Below are positions 284 through 52,835 of a stretch of 64,000 nt of DNA, one piece after another. How positions within the stretch are numbered: the stretch's first letter is position 1; each line of letters opens with the position of its first letter. The position numbers and the translations under genes are program-made. The notes under the pieces were generated by a model. That model was given only the letters and a program-made list of their open reading frames with translations. It searched no databases and was not told the DNA's origin. Source of the DNA: Escherichia coli (GTDB lineage: Bacteria; Pseudomonadota; Gammaproteobacteria; Enterobacterales; Enterobacteriaceae); assembly GCF_003334305.1 (NCBI RefSeq), contig NZ_QOWS01000007.1. The stretch is one strand, 5' to 3'.

Positions 284-394
284 TGCTCTATAAACTCCGT
301 ACATCACTCAATGCAAGGAATCAGGCTACCGGCTGGATGTACGACCGTGTTTACGGAGTATTTAGCACTCCGGCCTGATTCTGAATTCTTTTTA

Positions 395-18033: not shown

Positions 18034-21000
18034 TTAGTGAACGTAGTTAAAAATAAAAGGCATCACGGTGGTGAATAATGCCGCTTTCGGCCAGGCCGGA
18101 TTAATCGCCGTCAATTCAGCGCGAGCAGATTCATATTGCGCAACCTCCCCGAGTCCCGCGGACGCCAGCATCGCCACCATCAGGCATTTTTCTTTATGCT
18201 GCTGTTGTAAATCGCCATACAGCGACAACAGGTCAGGTTGTGAAACAGCAAAGAAATCCGCCTCAATACTGGTTTTCGCCATCTCTTGCGCCCACTGTTT
18301 CATTTCACTAAACAGTTGCTGTGCGGTTTGCTGTTCACCCAGCAGTCGCAGCGCCATTCCTTGCCAGAAGAGATAATCAACCGGCTGATCGTTGTAATAA
18401 CTGTGGATGTTAATGGTGCGATCGCCGGTCGCCGCCAGACGTAAACAACGCATCGCTTCAGTTTCATCGCCCTGCGCGTTGGCGCATATCGCCTGCCAGA
18501 ACCAGATGTCGTTATCAGTTTGCCCCGGTAAACGGCCTTCGCTTAAATTCTCCGGATAATGCAGCGCGGCATGAAGCAGTTCGCTGGCCTGCTGCGGCTC
18601 TCTGGCATCAAGATGCTGCCAGGCGCGTAATAACTGGTTGAGGATAAACTGACTGGTGACCTTCCCTTCCCCGCCTTCCCACGGGTGGAATTTGCGCGTG
18701 GCGAGAATGTCCGCCGCTTTGTCTGCCTGACCCGTGAGATGCCACAAATTGAGCAACTCTGCTGTCATGTCGTCGCGTTTCAGCGCAATTTCCAGATTAT
18801 TTTCCAGACGCGCCAGTCGTTTCTCCGGTGTGGCTCCGCTTAACTTATCAAGCAAATCCCGTTCGAAAAGCAGACGTGCATCCTGCGGCGCAAGCTGATA
18901 AGCATTATCAAGATAACGCGCGGCCAGCTCATAATCGTGTTGCTTATTCCACGCATGGATCGCTAACCCGCGCCAGCCGTCGGCAAACTCCGGCGACATC
19001 TCTACGCAACGTTGCCATAAGGTAATGGCTTTGTTGTAGCTACGCTTGTTGTAGTAGAAGCAGGCCAGTAAATGACGGGCAAACCAGCACTCTTCAATAC
19101 TCTCCAGCGCCGCCACTTCTTCCAGCGTATTCGGGAAACGGACAAACTGCGGGAAGACATCAATGGCTTTTGCGACCAGTTCGCCGCGTTCGGCTTTCGG
19201 CAATAAACTCGCCTGCAGGTAAAGCGGCAGCGTGCGCTGGCAGTCCAGTGCGTTCAGCATCTCTGCCGCCAGGGTGGGCATTCCCCAGTTAATCAGTTGC
19301 CCGGCGGTCATCAGAGCGTTAACGTCGCGTCCCTGACACAGACCGCGCCACTGCGCGAGAGCTGATTCGCTACGACCATCGAACCAGTTCAGCCACCACA
19401 GAGTGGCGTTCAGCGGATAATCGCGCAGCAGTTTCTCGCGCTGCACACGCGCGTTGTCCTGACGACCACTTAACACCAGCAGCAGATTATGCAGGCAAAG
19501 CACTTCCTGATTGGTTGGGCAGGCGCGAAGACTTTGTTGGCAAAAATCCAGACCAGCGTCGAAGTTACCATTACGCGCCGCCAGTCGTGCCAGGCCATAA
19601 TAGCCACCGGCTTTGCTGTTGCCGCTCCAGACCGCACGCCAGAAATCCTCTTCGGCTTGTTGATATTGTCCCTGACGTTCGTAAGCACTGGCGCGAATCA
19701 AACTGGCCTGTCCGCACTGCGGATTTTTGTTCAGCGCATGTGCGCGTTTCAGCGCCTGAGTGGCATACGCCACCGCTTGCGGGAAATCGGCGCGGTTATA
19801 TTCCAGCATCGCCAGCGCCAGGTTACAGCGGTAATCCAGCGGATCCAGCACCACGCCGCGCAGGTAGTAATCGAACGGTGAACGGCTGGCGTGATGATAT
19901 TGCTCCAGATGCTGACCGATAAACCAGGCTTCATCTGTACTGGTAATGTCTTGTGCTGCCAGTGGCGCTTTGGCGACGTCCGGCAACGGCAACTCTTGCG
20001 GCTGATGTTCCTGATAACTCAGTACAATATTGCCGTCGGCATCGGAGAGCTCAATGGTCAGCCTTTCAGGATTGATACCGTGCAACACGCCCTGGATGGC
20101 GGTCGCAGGCATCAGTGCCACGGCATCATCAAGTAACGCGTTGCATTTGCCGATTTCGCGGATCGCCAGGCGGTATCCGTTCAACGGAGAGATGGCATAC
20201 AGCCCCCACTCAATCCCCCGCTTACTACGCTGGAGTTTTATCACCGCATCGCGGGAGGCATTTTGCACCATGCCCAAAGAATGATAAGGCAGGAAATACT
20301 GCTCAAAACGCATCTCTTCGTAAGCATCAAGCCAGGTAAAATCGGGCTGGTTATCGGCAAAAATACCGGTCATCAGTTCGATATACGGGCCGTTATTGTC
20401 GGTCAGACTCTTATCCCACGCCTGGCCAAATTCACTGTGTCCCCAACTCCACTGTTTTTTACCTGGCGCGATATGGTGGTTGGCAACGTGCAGCAAACCG
20501 CCATCTTCATCGTGACACCACGCGCCGACAAAATCGTACTGCGATTTTTCGGCCATATATGAGGTTGGAACAGGCACATTTTTATAGCGAGAAATGTCCA
20601 CTCCGGCGGAGTAGTCCACTTTGTAGTAAGTGCCGGTGGCGATGGGGAAAGCGGAGACGGCCCGTTTGCCGTGATCAAACACCGCAGTCACATCCGGTGG
20701 GAAAACGCTCTGATGCCCTTCCCCCCCTTTCACTGCCGGGTTGGCCCACCACAAGAAATGACGCGGCGTGGCGTTACCGTTATAGACGCGGCTGGCGATT
20801 TCCAGCGCCGCCCGTTCAGGACGCAGTGTGAAACCTGTCATCACCTGTAAACCGTGCATCGGCTCCGTTTCGCCGACCCACACCGTCTGTGCGCCGTCTT
20901 CATGGGCTTCGAGGGTGAAATCAACGGGCATAAAGGTGGTCGGGCGATGGTGTTGCGGCCAGTTAAACTCAATCCCGCCAGAGATCCACGGTCCCAGCAG

Positions 21001-25904: not shown

Positions 25905-27239
25905 TCATTCCTTGAAATCGTTTGCATCCAGCTCGTGTCGGGAAAGCAGTTTATAAAATTCTGTCCGGTTGCGCCCCGCCATTCTCGCCGCGTGGGTGAC
26001 GTTGCCTTTGGTAATTTGCAGCAGCTTACGCAAATAGTTGAGTTCAAACTGATTACGTGCCTCAACAAAGGTTGGCAGCGCCGTGTTTTCACCCTCCAGC
26101 GCCTGCTCTACTAATGCATCGCTAATAACCGGAGATGAGGTCAGCGCCACGCACTGTTCAATCACGTTGACCAACTGGCGCACATTACCCGGCCAGCTAG
26201 CGGTCATCAGGCGTTTCATCGCATCAGTGGAGAACGCGCGGACAAACGGTTTATGTCGCTCTGCCGCCTGGCGCAACAGGTGATTTGCCAGAAGCGGAAT
26301 GTCTTCTGTGCGCTCTGCCAGAGCCGGAATTTTCAGGCTGACAACGTTGAGGCGGTAATAGAGATCTTCACGGAATTCCCCGCGCGCCATCGCTTTTGGC
26401 AGGTCGCGGTGAGTGGCGGAAATAATCCGCACGTCGATATCAATATCGCGGTTGCTGCCCAGCGGGCGCACTTTACGCTCCTGCAACACGCGCAGCAGTT
26501 TGACCTGCAATGGTGCGGGCATATCGCCAATCTCATCGAGAAATAGCGTACCGCCTTCCGCCGCCTGGAATAAACCTTCGCGATTGCTGACAGCGCCAGT
26601 AAACGCGCCACGCGCATGACCAAACAGCTCCGACTCCAGCAACTGCTCGGGCAATGCGCCACAGTTAATAGCAATAAATGGTTTGCTGTTACGCGGGCTG
26701 GCGTTGTGGATAGCCTGGGCGAAAATCTCTTTCCCGGTGCCGCTCTGGCCATTAATCAACACGCTGACGTCTGATTGCGCCACCAGCCGCGCCTGTTCCA
26801 GCAAACGCAGCATCAGCGGGCTGCGGGTGACAATTGCCTCGCGCCAGCGTTCATCGGTGGCTGGCGCGGATTGCTCCAGCGCATCGTCAATTGCCTGATA
26901 TAGCGCGTCTTTGTCGACAGGCTTGGTGAGGAAACTAAAAACGCCCTGCTGTGTTGCAGCAACGGCATCGGGGATAGAACCATGCGCAGTAAGAATAATT
27001 ACCGGCATTCCCGGCTGCACTTTCTGGATTTCAGCAAACAGCTGCATACCGTCCATTTCATCCATCCGCAGGTCGCTGATAACTAAATCTACTTTTTCGC
27101 GATTCAGTACCCGTAATCCTTCAGCGCCACTTTCCGCCGTGACCACACTGTAGCCTTCGCTGGTCAGGCGCAGGCCAAGCAGTTTCAGCAATCCCGGATC
27201 GTCATCGACCAATAATAAATGCGCAGGTTTATGGCTCAT
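25905..27239 (-). CDS. glrR: Sigma-54-dependent response regulator GlrR (YfhA), 444 aa
   Basis: ORF track 25905..27341; start set to ATG 27237-27239 ([14 protein letters not shown]...); receiver, AAA+ (GESGTGKE) and HTH domains. Confidence 0.9.
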
Positions 27240-27942
27240 CAGGAGTGACCTCATGGGTGGATGGCGCGGGCTTTTCACCCTCGTGCGGCGTATCCGGCGA
27301 GAAATTTCCAGCCGGTTTGCGGGTCGAGAGCTGGCGTTCAATATCAGTCAGGTTTTCCAGCTTGCGGGTGGTGAGTTCCAGTTGCTGCTGTAGAACGTGA
27401 TGTTGCTGGCGCAATGTATCCAGCTCGCTGTCGCTGGCCTGCTGGAGCTTGCCGTAGCGTTGGCGCTCTTCCGCCAGTTGCAGTTGCAGCGCCTGACCGT
27501 CGCGCCAGAGTTGATACAGAGGGCGAACCTGTGCCGGGATCTCGGTACTTAGCGCATCAATGCGCGCGACCAGCTGGCGGCGCTCATACGGCGTAATTTT
27601 GGCGTCGGCGAGCAAAATCCCTTGTTTAAAGGTATTTTGCCAGCTGCCGTCGTCATATTGGCGAGCTTGCTGACGTGACTGCGCAGGCATTAAACGATCA
27701 GCACAATCCATCGCCCGCAGCCAGTAAAGCGGATTGGTTTCGGTTGATTTACCTTGCAGCGCCCAGATGTCGCTACATTCAGTAGAAAGATAGTCAGCCA
27801 GTTGATAAACCGGAATTTTTTCTTCTGCTGGCGTATCAATGGCTGGCTTATTGTGACTCTGCACGCAACCCAGCAATGCCAGACATGGCAGCCCTGCCAG
27901 CCACAGCCGTCGGGGCAATAATCGTTGAAAAATGTGTCGCAT
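27229..27942 (-). CDS. qseG: Lipoprotein QseG (YfhG), 237 aa
   Basis: ORF track 27229..27948; lipobox LLGC in signal peptide; overlaps glrR start by about 11 nt. Confidence 0.8.
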   Translation of the reverse strand: MRHIFQRLLPRRLWLAGLPCLALLGCVQSHNKPAIDTPAEEKIPVYQLADYLSTECSDIWALQGKSTETNPLYWLRAMDCADRLMPAQSRQQARQYDDGSWQNTFKQGILLADAKITPYERRQLVARIDALSTEIPAQVRPLYQLWRDGQALQLQLAEERQRYGKLQQASDSELDTLRQQHHVLQQQLELTTRKLENLTDIERQLSTRKPAGNFSPDTPHEGEKPAPSTHEVTPDEP

Positions 27943-27948
27943 ATTCAC

Positions 27949-28106
27949 CAGACTTAATGCCTATCCCAGTGGGCGTAATTATTGCAGGCAGTTTGGACAT
28001 GGACAGCGCGGAGAAACCGGAGCGTACACGTCGTACGTGAGGATTTCGAGCACTGCCCGGGGCCGAACTGGCAAATAAAATAGCCTGATGGGATAGGCTG
28101 TTAGCA
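27949..28106. repeat. GC-rich structured intergenic element between glrK and qseG (inverted-repeat flanked, internal palindrome)
   Basis: ctatcccagtggg ... cctgatgggatag flanking inverted repeats and internal palindrome cgtacacgtcgtacg; unusually long and GC-rich for an intra-operon gap. Confidence 0.45.
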
Positions 28107-29534
28107 TTATTTCGTGTTTTTCGACGACGGCAATTCAATGCGGAAACAAACGTCTTGCCCGCTCTCGTCGACCAGATACAGTTCCCCTTGCATACGGCGA
28201 ATACAATCCCTGGCAATGCTTAATCCCAGACCGCTGCCCTTCACCGCCCCTTTTCGCTGGTGGCTTCCTTGAAAAAAGGGTTCGAAGATCATGGCGCGTT
28301 CCTCTTGCGGAATGGGTGTGCCTGTATTGATGACATCAATATAAACCCGTGCACCATGTAAGCTGCTGCGAAGGCAAATGTTACCGGATTCAGCCCCGTA
28401 GTGCACCGCATTGGAGTAAAGATTATCCAGTACGCTCATCAGCAGCATTGGCTCCGCCAGGCAAGCTGTTGCTTTGAGATCGACGTCGGTATGCATCATT
28501 TTAGCCCGTGCGGGCAGGCTATGAGCAGAAACCACTGTCTCCACCAGCGGTGCTAATTCAACATTCTCCAGTTCCACCGCACTGTCCGCCTGTTTACGGT
28601 TGTAATCAAGCAGTTGTTCGATCAGTTTTTGCAAATTGCGGCTGCTGCTATCAAGAATGCTCACCACCTCTTTTTGCTCTGGCGTAAGCGGCCCGACAAC
28701 CTGGTCAGCCAGTAATTCAGTGCCCTCGCGCATACTCGCCAGTGGCGTTTTTAATTCATGAGATAAATGTCTTAAAAATTGATGGCGTTGGGATTCCAGC
28801 CATGACAGGCGCTCACTTAACCAAAGAATACGTTGCCCAACCGAGCGTAACTCGCTCGGTCCACTGAACGAAACGCTATTGCCCAGAGAACGCCCTTCCC
28901 CCAGACGGTTGATCATGCGCTCGATATTTTTCACCGGCCCGATAATCATCCGCGTGAAAAGTAGCACCATCACCAGACTCACCAGAAATAGCACCAGCGA
29001 TTGCCAACCAAAATATTGCCCACGTTCGGCGATTTCACGCTGAAGTTGCTGCCCACGAGAGAACACCACTGTGCGCGTGGCCTGCACCATTTCGGTATTG
29101 GCACTGGCAAAGGCTTCAAGACGCGCGGCGGCGGCAGCATCGGGACCACTGTTGTTACACTGAAGTTGGGCCAGATTGTTCAAATCCTGACGCAATGCCT
29201 GGTAAAGTTTATCGTCTGGCAGTACGCCTGCGTGGGCATCGAGCATTTCGCTGTAACGCTTGCGCTGGCTTTGATAAACCTTCGCAAGCGTAGGATCGTC
29301 CAGCACGCAATACTGACGGTAGCTACGCTCCATCTCCAGCGCCGCGTTGGTCATCGCTTCACTACGCCGGGCATCAATAAGCGTAGTGCGGTTAACCAGC
29401 GCCGCCTGATCGCTAAGCGCATTCAGGCTTTGCCAGGCTTGCCATGCCAGCACCAACAGGGGTAGTAGAATTAGCAAAAATGCCAGCATTACCAGTTGTC
29501 GTAATGAGCGGGGAAAAACAGGCCAGCGTTTCAA
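28107..29534 (-). CDS. glrK: Sensor histidine kinase GlrK (YfhK), 475 aa, probable TTG start
   Basis: ORF track 28107..29597; remembered protein begins MKRWPVFPRSL, which in this sequence corresponds to a TTG start at 29532-29534; HisKA and ATPase motifs present. Confidence 0.8.
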   Translation of the reverse strand: MKRWPVFPRSLRQLVMLAFLLILLPLLVLAWQAWQSLNALSDQAALVNRTTLIDARRSEAMTNAALEMERSYRQYCVLDDPTLAKVYQSQRKRYSEMLDAHAGVLPDDKLYQALRQDLNNLAQLQCNNSGPDAAAAARLEAFASANTEMVQATRTVVFSRGQQLQREIAERGQYFGWQSLVLFLVSLVMVLLFTRMIIGPVKNIERMINRLGEGRSLGNSVSFSGPSELRSVGQRILWLSERLSWLESQRHQFLRHLSHELKTPLASMREGTELLADQVVGPLTPEQKEVVSILDSSSRNLQKLIEQLLDYNRKQADSAVELENVELAPLVETVVSAHSLPARAKMMHTDVDLKATACLAEPMLLMSVLDNLYSNAVHYGAESGNICLRSSLHGARVYIDVINTGTPIPQEERAMIFEPFFQGSHQRKGAVKGSGLGLSIARDCIRRMQGELYLVDESGQDVCFRIELPSSKNTK

Positions 29535-29592: not shown

Positions 29593-29776
29593 AACAAAGC
29601 CGGGAATTACCCGGCTTTGTTATGGAATAAGGCGGTGCCTAACTCGACGTTTCGCCCGATGGTTGATATAGCTACGCTGATATCAGAAGTTGGACGGCAG
29701 GCACCTTGTTGTGCGTCATTCGAATTTTATGTAGCACGTCCCGAAGGGGCTGACATAAGTCGGTGAATGAGCCACT
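29593..29776 (-). ncRNA. glmY: Small RNA GlmY, about 184 nt
   Basis: Minus-strand sequence AGTGGCTCATTCACCGACTTATGTCAGCCCCTTCGGGACGTGC...AAAGCCGGGTAATTCCCGGCTTTGTTGT matches remembered GlmY, ending in a terminator hairpin directly upstream of glrK. Confidence 0.85.
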
Positions 29777-52736: not shown

Positions 52737-52835
52737 GCCTGATGCGCTACGCTTATCAGGCCTACGTGGCTCATGCAATATATTGAATTTGCACGATCTT
52801 GTAGGCCGGATAAGGCGTTCACGCCGCATCCGGCA
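52737..52835. repeat. BIME (two inverted REP units) downstream of srmB
   Basis: gcctgatgcgctacgcttatcaggcctac ... gtaggccggataaggcgttcacgccgcatccggca. Confidence 0.8.

Follow-up and report, generated by a model that had tools for sequence, protein, structure and literature searches.

Our analysis of the spacer between glrK and qseG in Escherichia coli identifies, with high confidence, a fixed, non-autonomous miniature inverted-repeat element (MITE) of a low-copy enterobacterial family, which is very probably RSA (= BEE95). Comparison of the same gene junction across genera indicates that the element entered in an Escherichia ancestor and is not the original control element of the operon.

The window (the whole stretch of E. 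coli DNA that was analysed, 64,000 nt) has the gene order glnB-glrR-qseG-glrK-glmY-purL on its minus strand and, over glrR, qseG, and glrK, is 97.4–98.0% identical to K-12 MG1655. The glrK-qseG gap of K-12 is likewise 164 bp, with no feature annotated inside it, and, in a megablast search, each of the 5426 complete E. coli genomes contained the spacer as well as further matching places elsewhere. The GlmY sRNA gene, expected for the locus, lies directly upstream of glrK (29629–29776, minus strand; Rfam, 147 bits), and five further Rfam families match the window at gathering score: AsrC antisense RNA (45460–46291, plus strand), rncO (42462–42676, minus strand), the iscRS stability element (285–394, minus strand), ohsC antitoxin RNA (38974–39050, plus strand), and ES036 (52758–52800, minus strand).

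The element together with its two duplications occupies 150 bp of the spacer (27954–28103; Table 1). The plus strand used throughout is the orientation of the family model and is antisense to glrK and qseG. The preliminary description had pictured the spacer as flanking inverted repeats around a core with a palindrome and a GC-rich motif, and all of these are present: the inverted repeats ctatcccagtggg (27961–27973) and cctgatgggatag (28084–28096); the palindrome cgtacacgtcgtacg (28023–28037), with a 5-bp stem and a 5-nt loop; and the motif cccgggg (28057–28063). A repeat finder places longer arms at 27959–27983 and 28074–28098 (25 nt, 72% complementary). The stem at the apex takes several forms among copies, specifically GCGTAC/GTACGT, GCATAC/GTATGT, and GCCTAT/ATAGGT.

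Table 1. Features of the element, its setting, and related copies. Positions are those of the window, except for K-12 copies (K-12 genome) and entries given with a locus number (positions within that locus).
Feature	Position	Strand	Basis or remark
Miniature inverted-repeat element, 144 bp	27957–28100	+	Edges from flank alignment of 58 copies and from filled versus empty sites
Left target-site duplication TTA, 3 bp	27954–27956	+	Sequence; family-wide flank test
Right target-site duplication TTA, 3 bp	28101–28103	+	Sequence; family-wide flank test
Left terminal inverted repeat, 15 nt, ATGCCTATCCCAGTG	27957–27971	+	Family consensus GAGCCTATCCCAGTA
Right terminal inverted repeat, 15 nt, TGATGGGATAGGCTG	28086–28100	+	Family consensus TAATGGGATAGGCTC
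Conserved core module, 114 nt, GGCGTAAT...AAATAGCC	27972–28085	+	Covariance model R1, 125.3 bits, E ~1e-34
Apex hairpin CGTAC-ACGTC-GTACG	28023–28037	+	Loop variable among copies, stem covaries
19-mer GTGAGGATTTCGAGCACTG	28036–28054	+	Used to collect copies
glrK-qseG intergenic spacer, 164 bp	27943–28106		From glrK stop (28107–28109) to qseG start (27942)
glrK (qseE), sensor kinase, upstream operon gene	28107–29534	-	97.9% identical to K-12 glrK
qseG, lipoprotein gene, downstream	27229–27942	-	GGTGA ribosome-binding site ~14 nt 3′ of hairpin base
42-codon ORF from ATG overlapping glrK stop (TAATG) into element	27979–28107	-	ORF list
Local hairpin 28099–28082 (5 bp), then AUUUUAUUUG 28081–28072	28072–28099	-	Consensus scan
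K-12 copy, glrK-qseG	2689536–2689649	+	Model R1
K-12 copy, ucpA-cysP	2543658–2543771	+	Model R1
K-12 copy, ycbX-rlmL	1007697–1007809	-	Model R1
K-12 copy, pheM-pheS (pheM leader to pheS)	1799003–1799115	-	Model R1
Yersinia long-apex copy, L005	14033–14163
Yersinia long-apex copy, L024	3479–3610
Yersinia long-apex copy, L086	2138–2268
Yersinia long-apex copy, L087	3594–3724
Yersinia long-apex copy, L105	4502–4632
Paired copies, L028	3892–4006; 6398–6511
Paired copies, L064	4150–4263; 9296–9409
Paired copies, L081	839–954; 2348–2463
Paired copies, L043	340–452; 10870–10983

The spacer had been called long for one inside an operon, and comparison with relatives bears this out. The glrK-qseG junction is filled, at 163–164 nt, in E. 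coli, E. whittamii, and Escherichia sp. E4930, and is empty in the three other genera compared, at 1 nt in Salmonella enterica, 23 nt in Citrobacter koseri, and 17 nt in Klebsiella oxytoca, which identifies the element as an insertion of the Escherichia lineage. From these sequences, the junction before the insertion is reconstructed, as read on the mRNA strand, as a putative ...AATAATGC-TAA-GTCTGGTGAATATG...; its glrK stop would have overlapped (TAATG) an ATG from which qseG could be read in frame, the arrangement annotated in Salmonella. The insertion cut this upstream ATG off from qseG, and a 42-codon frame that terminates within the element now begins there. That this frame, with its start overlapping the glrK stop, encodes a small protein is extremely improbable: a 1-nt indel in Escherichia sp. 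E4930 alters the frame, which marks it as a by-product of the insertion rather than a conserved gene; loop-length differences among family copies shift every frame; and the ORF is explained as the severed upstream start of ancestral qseG running into the insertion.

The insertion also bears on where qseG begins. In E. coli, the downstream ATG, with a GGTGA site of its own, has to serve as the translation start, and, since the upstream ATG was cut away in E. coli and qseG was nevertheless kept, the downstream ATG (MRHIF.../MSHVF...) is suggested to be the true start in both species. Salmonella qseG is annotated as 17 codons longer (L123, 1201–1250; compare window 27942–27960), from an ATG one base past the glrK stop. 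One public gene call (P0001) yields a product of 411 aa with 100% identity to QseG along its whole length; the start is presumably mis-called, reading through the spacer region. The odd 164-bp gap is thus explained as an Escherichia-specific insertion, and this matters when findings on QseE/QseG/QseF (GlrK/GlrR) made in either E. coli or Salmonella are applied to the other: E. coli qseG no longer directly adjoins the glrK stop and has a strong hairpin ahead of it.

The element and its relatives have the properties of a MITE. In particular, they have terminal inverted repeats, a target-site duplication, and filled and empty sites in relatives; they are small (144 bp) and multi-copy (105 copies in the searched loci and the window); and they have no conserved coding capacity, with apex-loop indels among copies shifting reading frames. 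Alignment of the flanks of 58 copies makes the terminal inverted repeats GAGCCTATCCCAGTA and TAATGGGATAGGCTC visible and defines the layout of the enterobacterial element as GAGCCTATCCCAGTA, 114-nt core, TAATGGGATAGGCTC. The same 3 nt flank the element on both sides in 36 of the 46 full enterobacterial copies (TAA or TTA, once TAC), and the 3-nt flanks are one base apart in another 8; shuffled flank pairings, by comparison, gave a mean of 16.7 and a maximum of 27 identical pairs. Because left and right flanks are identical rather than complementary, they are direct repeats, that is, a target-site duplication. The element would have moved by cut-and-paste, with the transposase supplied in trans, and the 3-bp TWA duplication and GAG-type ends presumably point to an enzyme of the IS5/Harbinger type. 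A search for an autonomous partner revealed no solo terminal-repeat pairs flanking a transposase in ~1 Mb of searched loci, and a search of plasmids with the left end for a parent insertion sequence returned further MITE copies only.

Within E. coli, genome searches reveal a dispersed repeat and not a single-copy spacer. Six blastn places were found in an MG1655 record (NZ_CP032667.1) and six in strain C600, and the number of places per E. coli genome has a median of 5 and a maximum of 8. The suggestion, made from the first reading of the sequence, of a small intergenic repeat of the BoxC or RSA type is borne out for RSA, since the 150-bp unit and the 6 copies match the listing of RSA. Covariance model R1, derived from related copies, places four of the K-12 copies, at 102–129 bits (Table 1). 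These lie in four contexts (within an operon, in a leader, ahead of a promoter-bearing gene, and separating divergent genes) and differ in orientation relative to transcription; RefSeq annotates none of the four. Two promising "phage" contigs, considered as leads to the remaining K-12 copies, were rejected as not being E. coli.

Beyond E. coli, the exact 19-mer GTGAGGATTTCGAGCACTG occurs in 115 stretches from bacterial genomes sampled at one per species. Many are from Enterobacterales (Citrobacter, Enterobacter, Kluyvera, Klebsiella, Erwinia, Pectobacterium, Dickeya, Serratia, Yersinia, and Photorhabdus), and others are from outside this order (Aeromonas, Billgrantia, Xanthomonadales- and Nevskiales-like bacteria, and Comamonadaceae); viral contigs contained no exact match to the 19-mer. 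The core, GGCGTA...TAGCC, measures 113–117 nt in all lineages, and the terminal repeats diverge more. In Comamonadaceae, copies sit between the binding-protein and ATPase genes of an ABC-transporter operon, and their outer stems differ in sequence between genera while keeping their complementarity.

Alignment of the window copy and 104 others (105 copies) to the plus-strand covariance model shows that pairing is kept across the core. Specifically, standard pairs occupy 94.6% of cells, as compared to 86.8% after shuffling and 15–42% when partners are slid by 1–3 columns, and 19 of the 30 pairs show double-sided (compensatory) changes. The variable helices change sequence yet stay complementary, which argues for a folded single strand and not for two protein-binding ends, although the two ends changing in parallel, or the arms of the palindrome being corrected against each other, could produce the same pattern. 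Across bacterial classes, the termini are less conserved than the 114-nt interior, an unusual pattern for a MITE; this, together with the kept pairing, hints that the folded strand has some role besides binding transposase. Relative to neighbouring genes (crude ORF calls), 41 copies are antisense, 26 are sense, and 38 lie between convergent or divergent genes; the excess of 41 over 26 is not convincing as an orientation bias.

Copies from Salmonella, Klebsiella, and Citrobacter are also present in plasmid and phage collections. The matches in phage collections are mostly mis-filed bacterial contigs, plus one copy in a bona fide phage, Yersinia phage vB_YenM_42.18 (H128, 18104–18221; 86% identity over 118 nt), where it is annotated inside a hypothetical protein. 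On many large plasmids of Klebsiella, Citrobacter, and Enterobacter (H97–H118), a near-identical copy lies at the end of an RND efflux permease gene, and its presence on those plasmids indicates that the element also travels on conjugative plasmids.

Several copies depart from the usual architecture. Phytobacter ursingii has two cores head to tail, 24 nt apart (L111, 520–633 and 658–771), with the usual outer terminal repeats missing between them; several Yersinia copies have a 17–18-nt insertion that lengthens the apex hairpin (for example, CATGA...TCATG; Table 1); and a copy in Y. aldovae directly adjoins a YPAL-like sequence (CAGACTGCTGACAAAC...). The 3′ half of the core is kept and the 5′ half is lost or replaced in L011, L014, L049, L020, and L062, and no clear 3′-truncated core was present among the copies inspected. 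The covariance model adds copies that lack the exact 19-mer, located 1.4–10 kb from the first copy (paired copies, Table 1); with these, copy numbers in Erwinia, Intestinirhabdus, Citrobacter, and a betaproteobacterial metagenome-assembled genome exceed those from the 19-mer scan, and neighbouring copies may form clusters. Two entries, from Methylobacterium mesophilicum (L056, a 234-bp contig) and "Chryseobacterium sp. 18061" (L090), look like enterobacterial contamination; the score of the former equals that of the E. coli ucpA-cysP copy, 129.4 bits.

Folding calculations indicate that the spacer is structured beyond chance on the mRNA (minus) strand, as the preliminary description had supposed. 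The 164-nt spacer folds at −60.3 kcal/mol (z −4.98) on this strand and at −68.5 kcal/mol (z −5.67) on the plus strand; on either strand, none of 200 dinucleotide-preserving shuffles folded as well, and the shape is one long imperfect hairpin. The slightly better fold of the plus strand would suit an element that encodes its own small RNA from that strand, antisense to the operon, as would the excess of G-U over A-C at paired columns (111 versus 54, one near-invariant G-U pair, 88/104, being set aside). We regard this as very improbable: there is no promoter-like site upstream, in or next to the element, and no convincing terminator on the plus strand; fitting the alignment to a plus-strand model favours G-U; the sequences share ancestry, so that the G-U and A-C counts are not independent; and the sole evidence of expression in the family, sX9 (below), concerns the opposite strand.

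On the minus strand, a consensus scan identifies a hairpin followed by AUUUUAUUUG at 28099–28072, a predicted, weak intrinsic-terminator-like motif. Its energy is −6.0 kcal/mol (5 bp) in this copy and −8.6 kcal/mol (6 bp) in the family consensus, and the scan yielded 2 such sites where 0.9 are expected, which is near chance. In folds of the growing transcript, this hairpin, which belongs to the first terminal repeat, forms ahead of the full hairpin. In the mRNA, the element comes after the glrK stop and ahead of the ribosome-binding site of qseG, which it does not bury in the folds.

These features suggest how a MITE insertion could affect the operon as a side effect and not as its purpose. 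The element would be carried, as the minus strand, in the glrK-qseG-glrR transcript and would fold there into a hairpin of −60 kcal/mol. Because the insertion separated qseG from the glrK stop, any translational coupling would have been lost; the weak hairpin and U-tract would be placed directly after glrK, where some transcripts may end; and the large hairpin may be a target for cleavage or an obstacle to exonucleases, as has been reported for ERIC, Correia, and REP. With coupling lost and hairpins gained, expression of qseG and glrR relative to glrK may fall or change. A regulatory effect on qseG and glrR, through partial termination, processing, or loss of coupling, is therefore plausible on the predicted folds.

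The other proposal of the preliminary description, a processing or attenuation structure that could uncouple kinase and regulator, is not supported as one evolved specifically for this operon. Salmonella, Citrobacter, and Klebsiella have the same operon with no element at this junction; copies elsewhere, those of E. coli among them, have unrelated surroundings and occur in both orientations; and divergence within E. coli is close to the fourfold-degenerate rate. Specifically, the spacers of the window and K-12 differ at 5.5% of sites, as compared to 7.1% at fourfold-degenerate sites; no change is compensatory, and one, in K-12, hits the otherwise invariant core. Between Escherichia species, in contrast, the spacer is only 3.8–5.8% divergent, as compared to 23–25% at fourfold-degenerate sites of glrK and qseG. 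This low divergence could reflect selection at glrK-qseG, but the adjoining ~330 nt at the 3′ end of glrK are equally similar between species (~2.4% divergence), so that a local recombination tract explains it equally well.

The same evidence bears on whether this particular copy has been recruited as a cis-acting RNA, with termination after glrK, and/or a hairpin that is cut or blocks exonucleases, allowing the kinase and the lipoprotein and regulator to be set independently. The terminator-like hairpin with its AUUUUAUUUG tract directly after the glrK stop, forming first in transcription, the stability of the hairpin on the mRNA strand, and conservation between Escherichia species well beyond the fourfold-site rate would all fit recruitment, as would the Comamonadaceae copies between cistrons of an ABC-transporter operon, with diverged but complementary outer stems, and the accumulation of a 75-nt sX9 RNA in Xanthomonas whose Rfam model aligns, below threshold, to the apex-to-base half. 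We nonetheless judge recruitment unlikely, given the same operon without the element in other genera, the unrelated contexts of the other E. coli copies, the near-neutral drift within E. coli that reaches the invariant core in K-12, the extension of low divergence into glrK, and a stem that is weak and occurs about as often as chance predicts. Moreover, qseE, qseG, and qseF are reportedly co-transcribed, which we also count against recruitment. An inserted MITE with incidental effects on the operon thus remains our preferred reading.

Rfam searches, at gathering score for 15 related loci and the whole window and with lax settings for the region, returned no family that reached threshold in the element. 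The sX9 model (RF02228) stays under its gathering score of 44, with 31.7 bits in E. coli, 30.3 bits in Curvibacter, and 17.8 bits in Rudaea. All 76 positions of the sX9 model align with the minus strand of family members, covering the stretch between the apex hairpin and the basal GCUCGCUACG motif. sX9 was detected as a 75-nt RNA on a northern blot in X. campestris pv. vesicatoria (PMC3300014), and its locus in strain 85-10 is 2929816–2929890; it corresponds to just one half of the element and was presented as an sRNA rather than as a repeat. The alignment suggests that sX9 is probably the apex-to-base fragment of a Xanthomonas member of the same superfamily. If sX9 is such a fragment, then the elements are transcribed and one half can accumulate.

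A bolder synthesis can be framed from these observations. RSA and sX9 would be branches of one old superfamily of Tourist-like (TWA-duplicating) MITEs of Gamma- and Betaproteobacteria, with a 114-nt interior selected as folded RNA or single-stranded DNA; hosts would reuse the elements as intercistronic processing or stability elements yielding an RNA of ~75 nt; and Escherichia alone would use its copy to set the ratio of QseG and GlrR to GlrK, and hence the output of GlmY. Taken as a whole, we consider this synthesis improbable.

The results have consequences for annotation and for the standing of RSA. RefSeq leaves every located copy unlabelled, and the half-length, Xanthomonas-trained sX9 model of Rfam misses the element. 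Our results suggest that RSA is a MITE with a TAA/TTA duplication and with a core that is conserved and covarying across bacterial classes. These points on RSA are worth a short dedicated study; the glrK-qseG locus itself stays ordinary.

The assignment to RSA is based on published descriptions. The original K-12 GenBank record contained 6 copies of RSA, of 150/151 bp, of which 2 were listed as forward and 4 as complement (PMC5172473), and a title cited in PMC3751351 describes RSA as "dispersed enterobacterial intergenic elements". Our element is likewise intergenic, dispersed, and enterobacterial, with a unit of 150 bp, which at glrK-qseG spans K-12 positions 2689522–2689671, and 6 places in K-12, and for this unit length and copy number we file it as RSA. 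The orientations (2 forward and 4 complement for RSA; 2 plus and 2 minus for the four placed K-12 copies) are compatible but not decisive, and the current RefSeq records of MG1655 and W3110 contain no RSA features. We consider it highly likely that the element is RSA (BEE95), the two being matched by length, copy number, and description only. Sal-1, a 115-nt family with 27 copies in S. typhimurium (Petrillo 2008), may, as compared by description, be the same family. This kind of element is already known and hardly characterised; the TAA/TTA duplication, the core that covaries across classes, and the link to sX9 appear to be absent from the searchable literature.

Other named repeats were tried as identities and rejected. 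No match to the ERIC1R and ERIC2 primer sequences, which represent the conserved central inverted repeat of ERIC/IRU, was found anywhere in the window at ≤4 mismatches, and YPAL/RU-2 and RU-3, the latter a REP/BIME-type sequence, have just chance words of 7–9 nt in common with the element, as judged from the sequences printed in PMC2759123. In general organisation, however, ERIC/IRU, YPAL (RU-2), and Correia/NEMIS resemble the element: they are ~100–170 bp long, have terminal inverted repeats, form a long hairpin, occur in either orientation, and lie next to stop codons or between cistrons. When co-transcribed, MITEs of the ERIC, YPAL, and Correia types can affect how mRNA decays or serve as cleavage sites for RNase III or RNase E. 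The copy number of our element is far below that of ERIC/IRU, YPAL, and Correia/NEMIS. Its 3-bp TAA/TTA duplication and GAG/GGA ends resemble those of Tourist-type PIF/Harbinger MITEs and of the bacterial IS5 family (3-bp TNA/TWA duplications). By comparison, the duplication is TA for ERIC and Correia and 3–26 bp for YPAL (PMC2229807).

REP/BIME sequences, such as that between malE and malF, resemble the element as intercistronic stem-loops in a polycistronic mRNA, and the Comamonadaceae copies are REP-like in their place just after the binding-protein gene of an ABC-transporter operon. REPs differ from the element in length (35–40 nt), in being far more numerous, in being moved by RAYT without duplications, and in sharing no sequence similarity with it.
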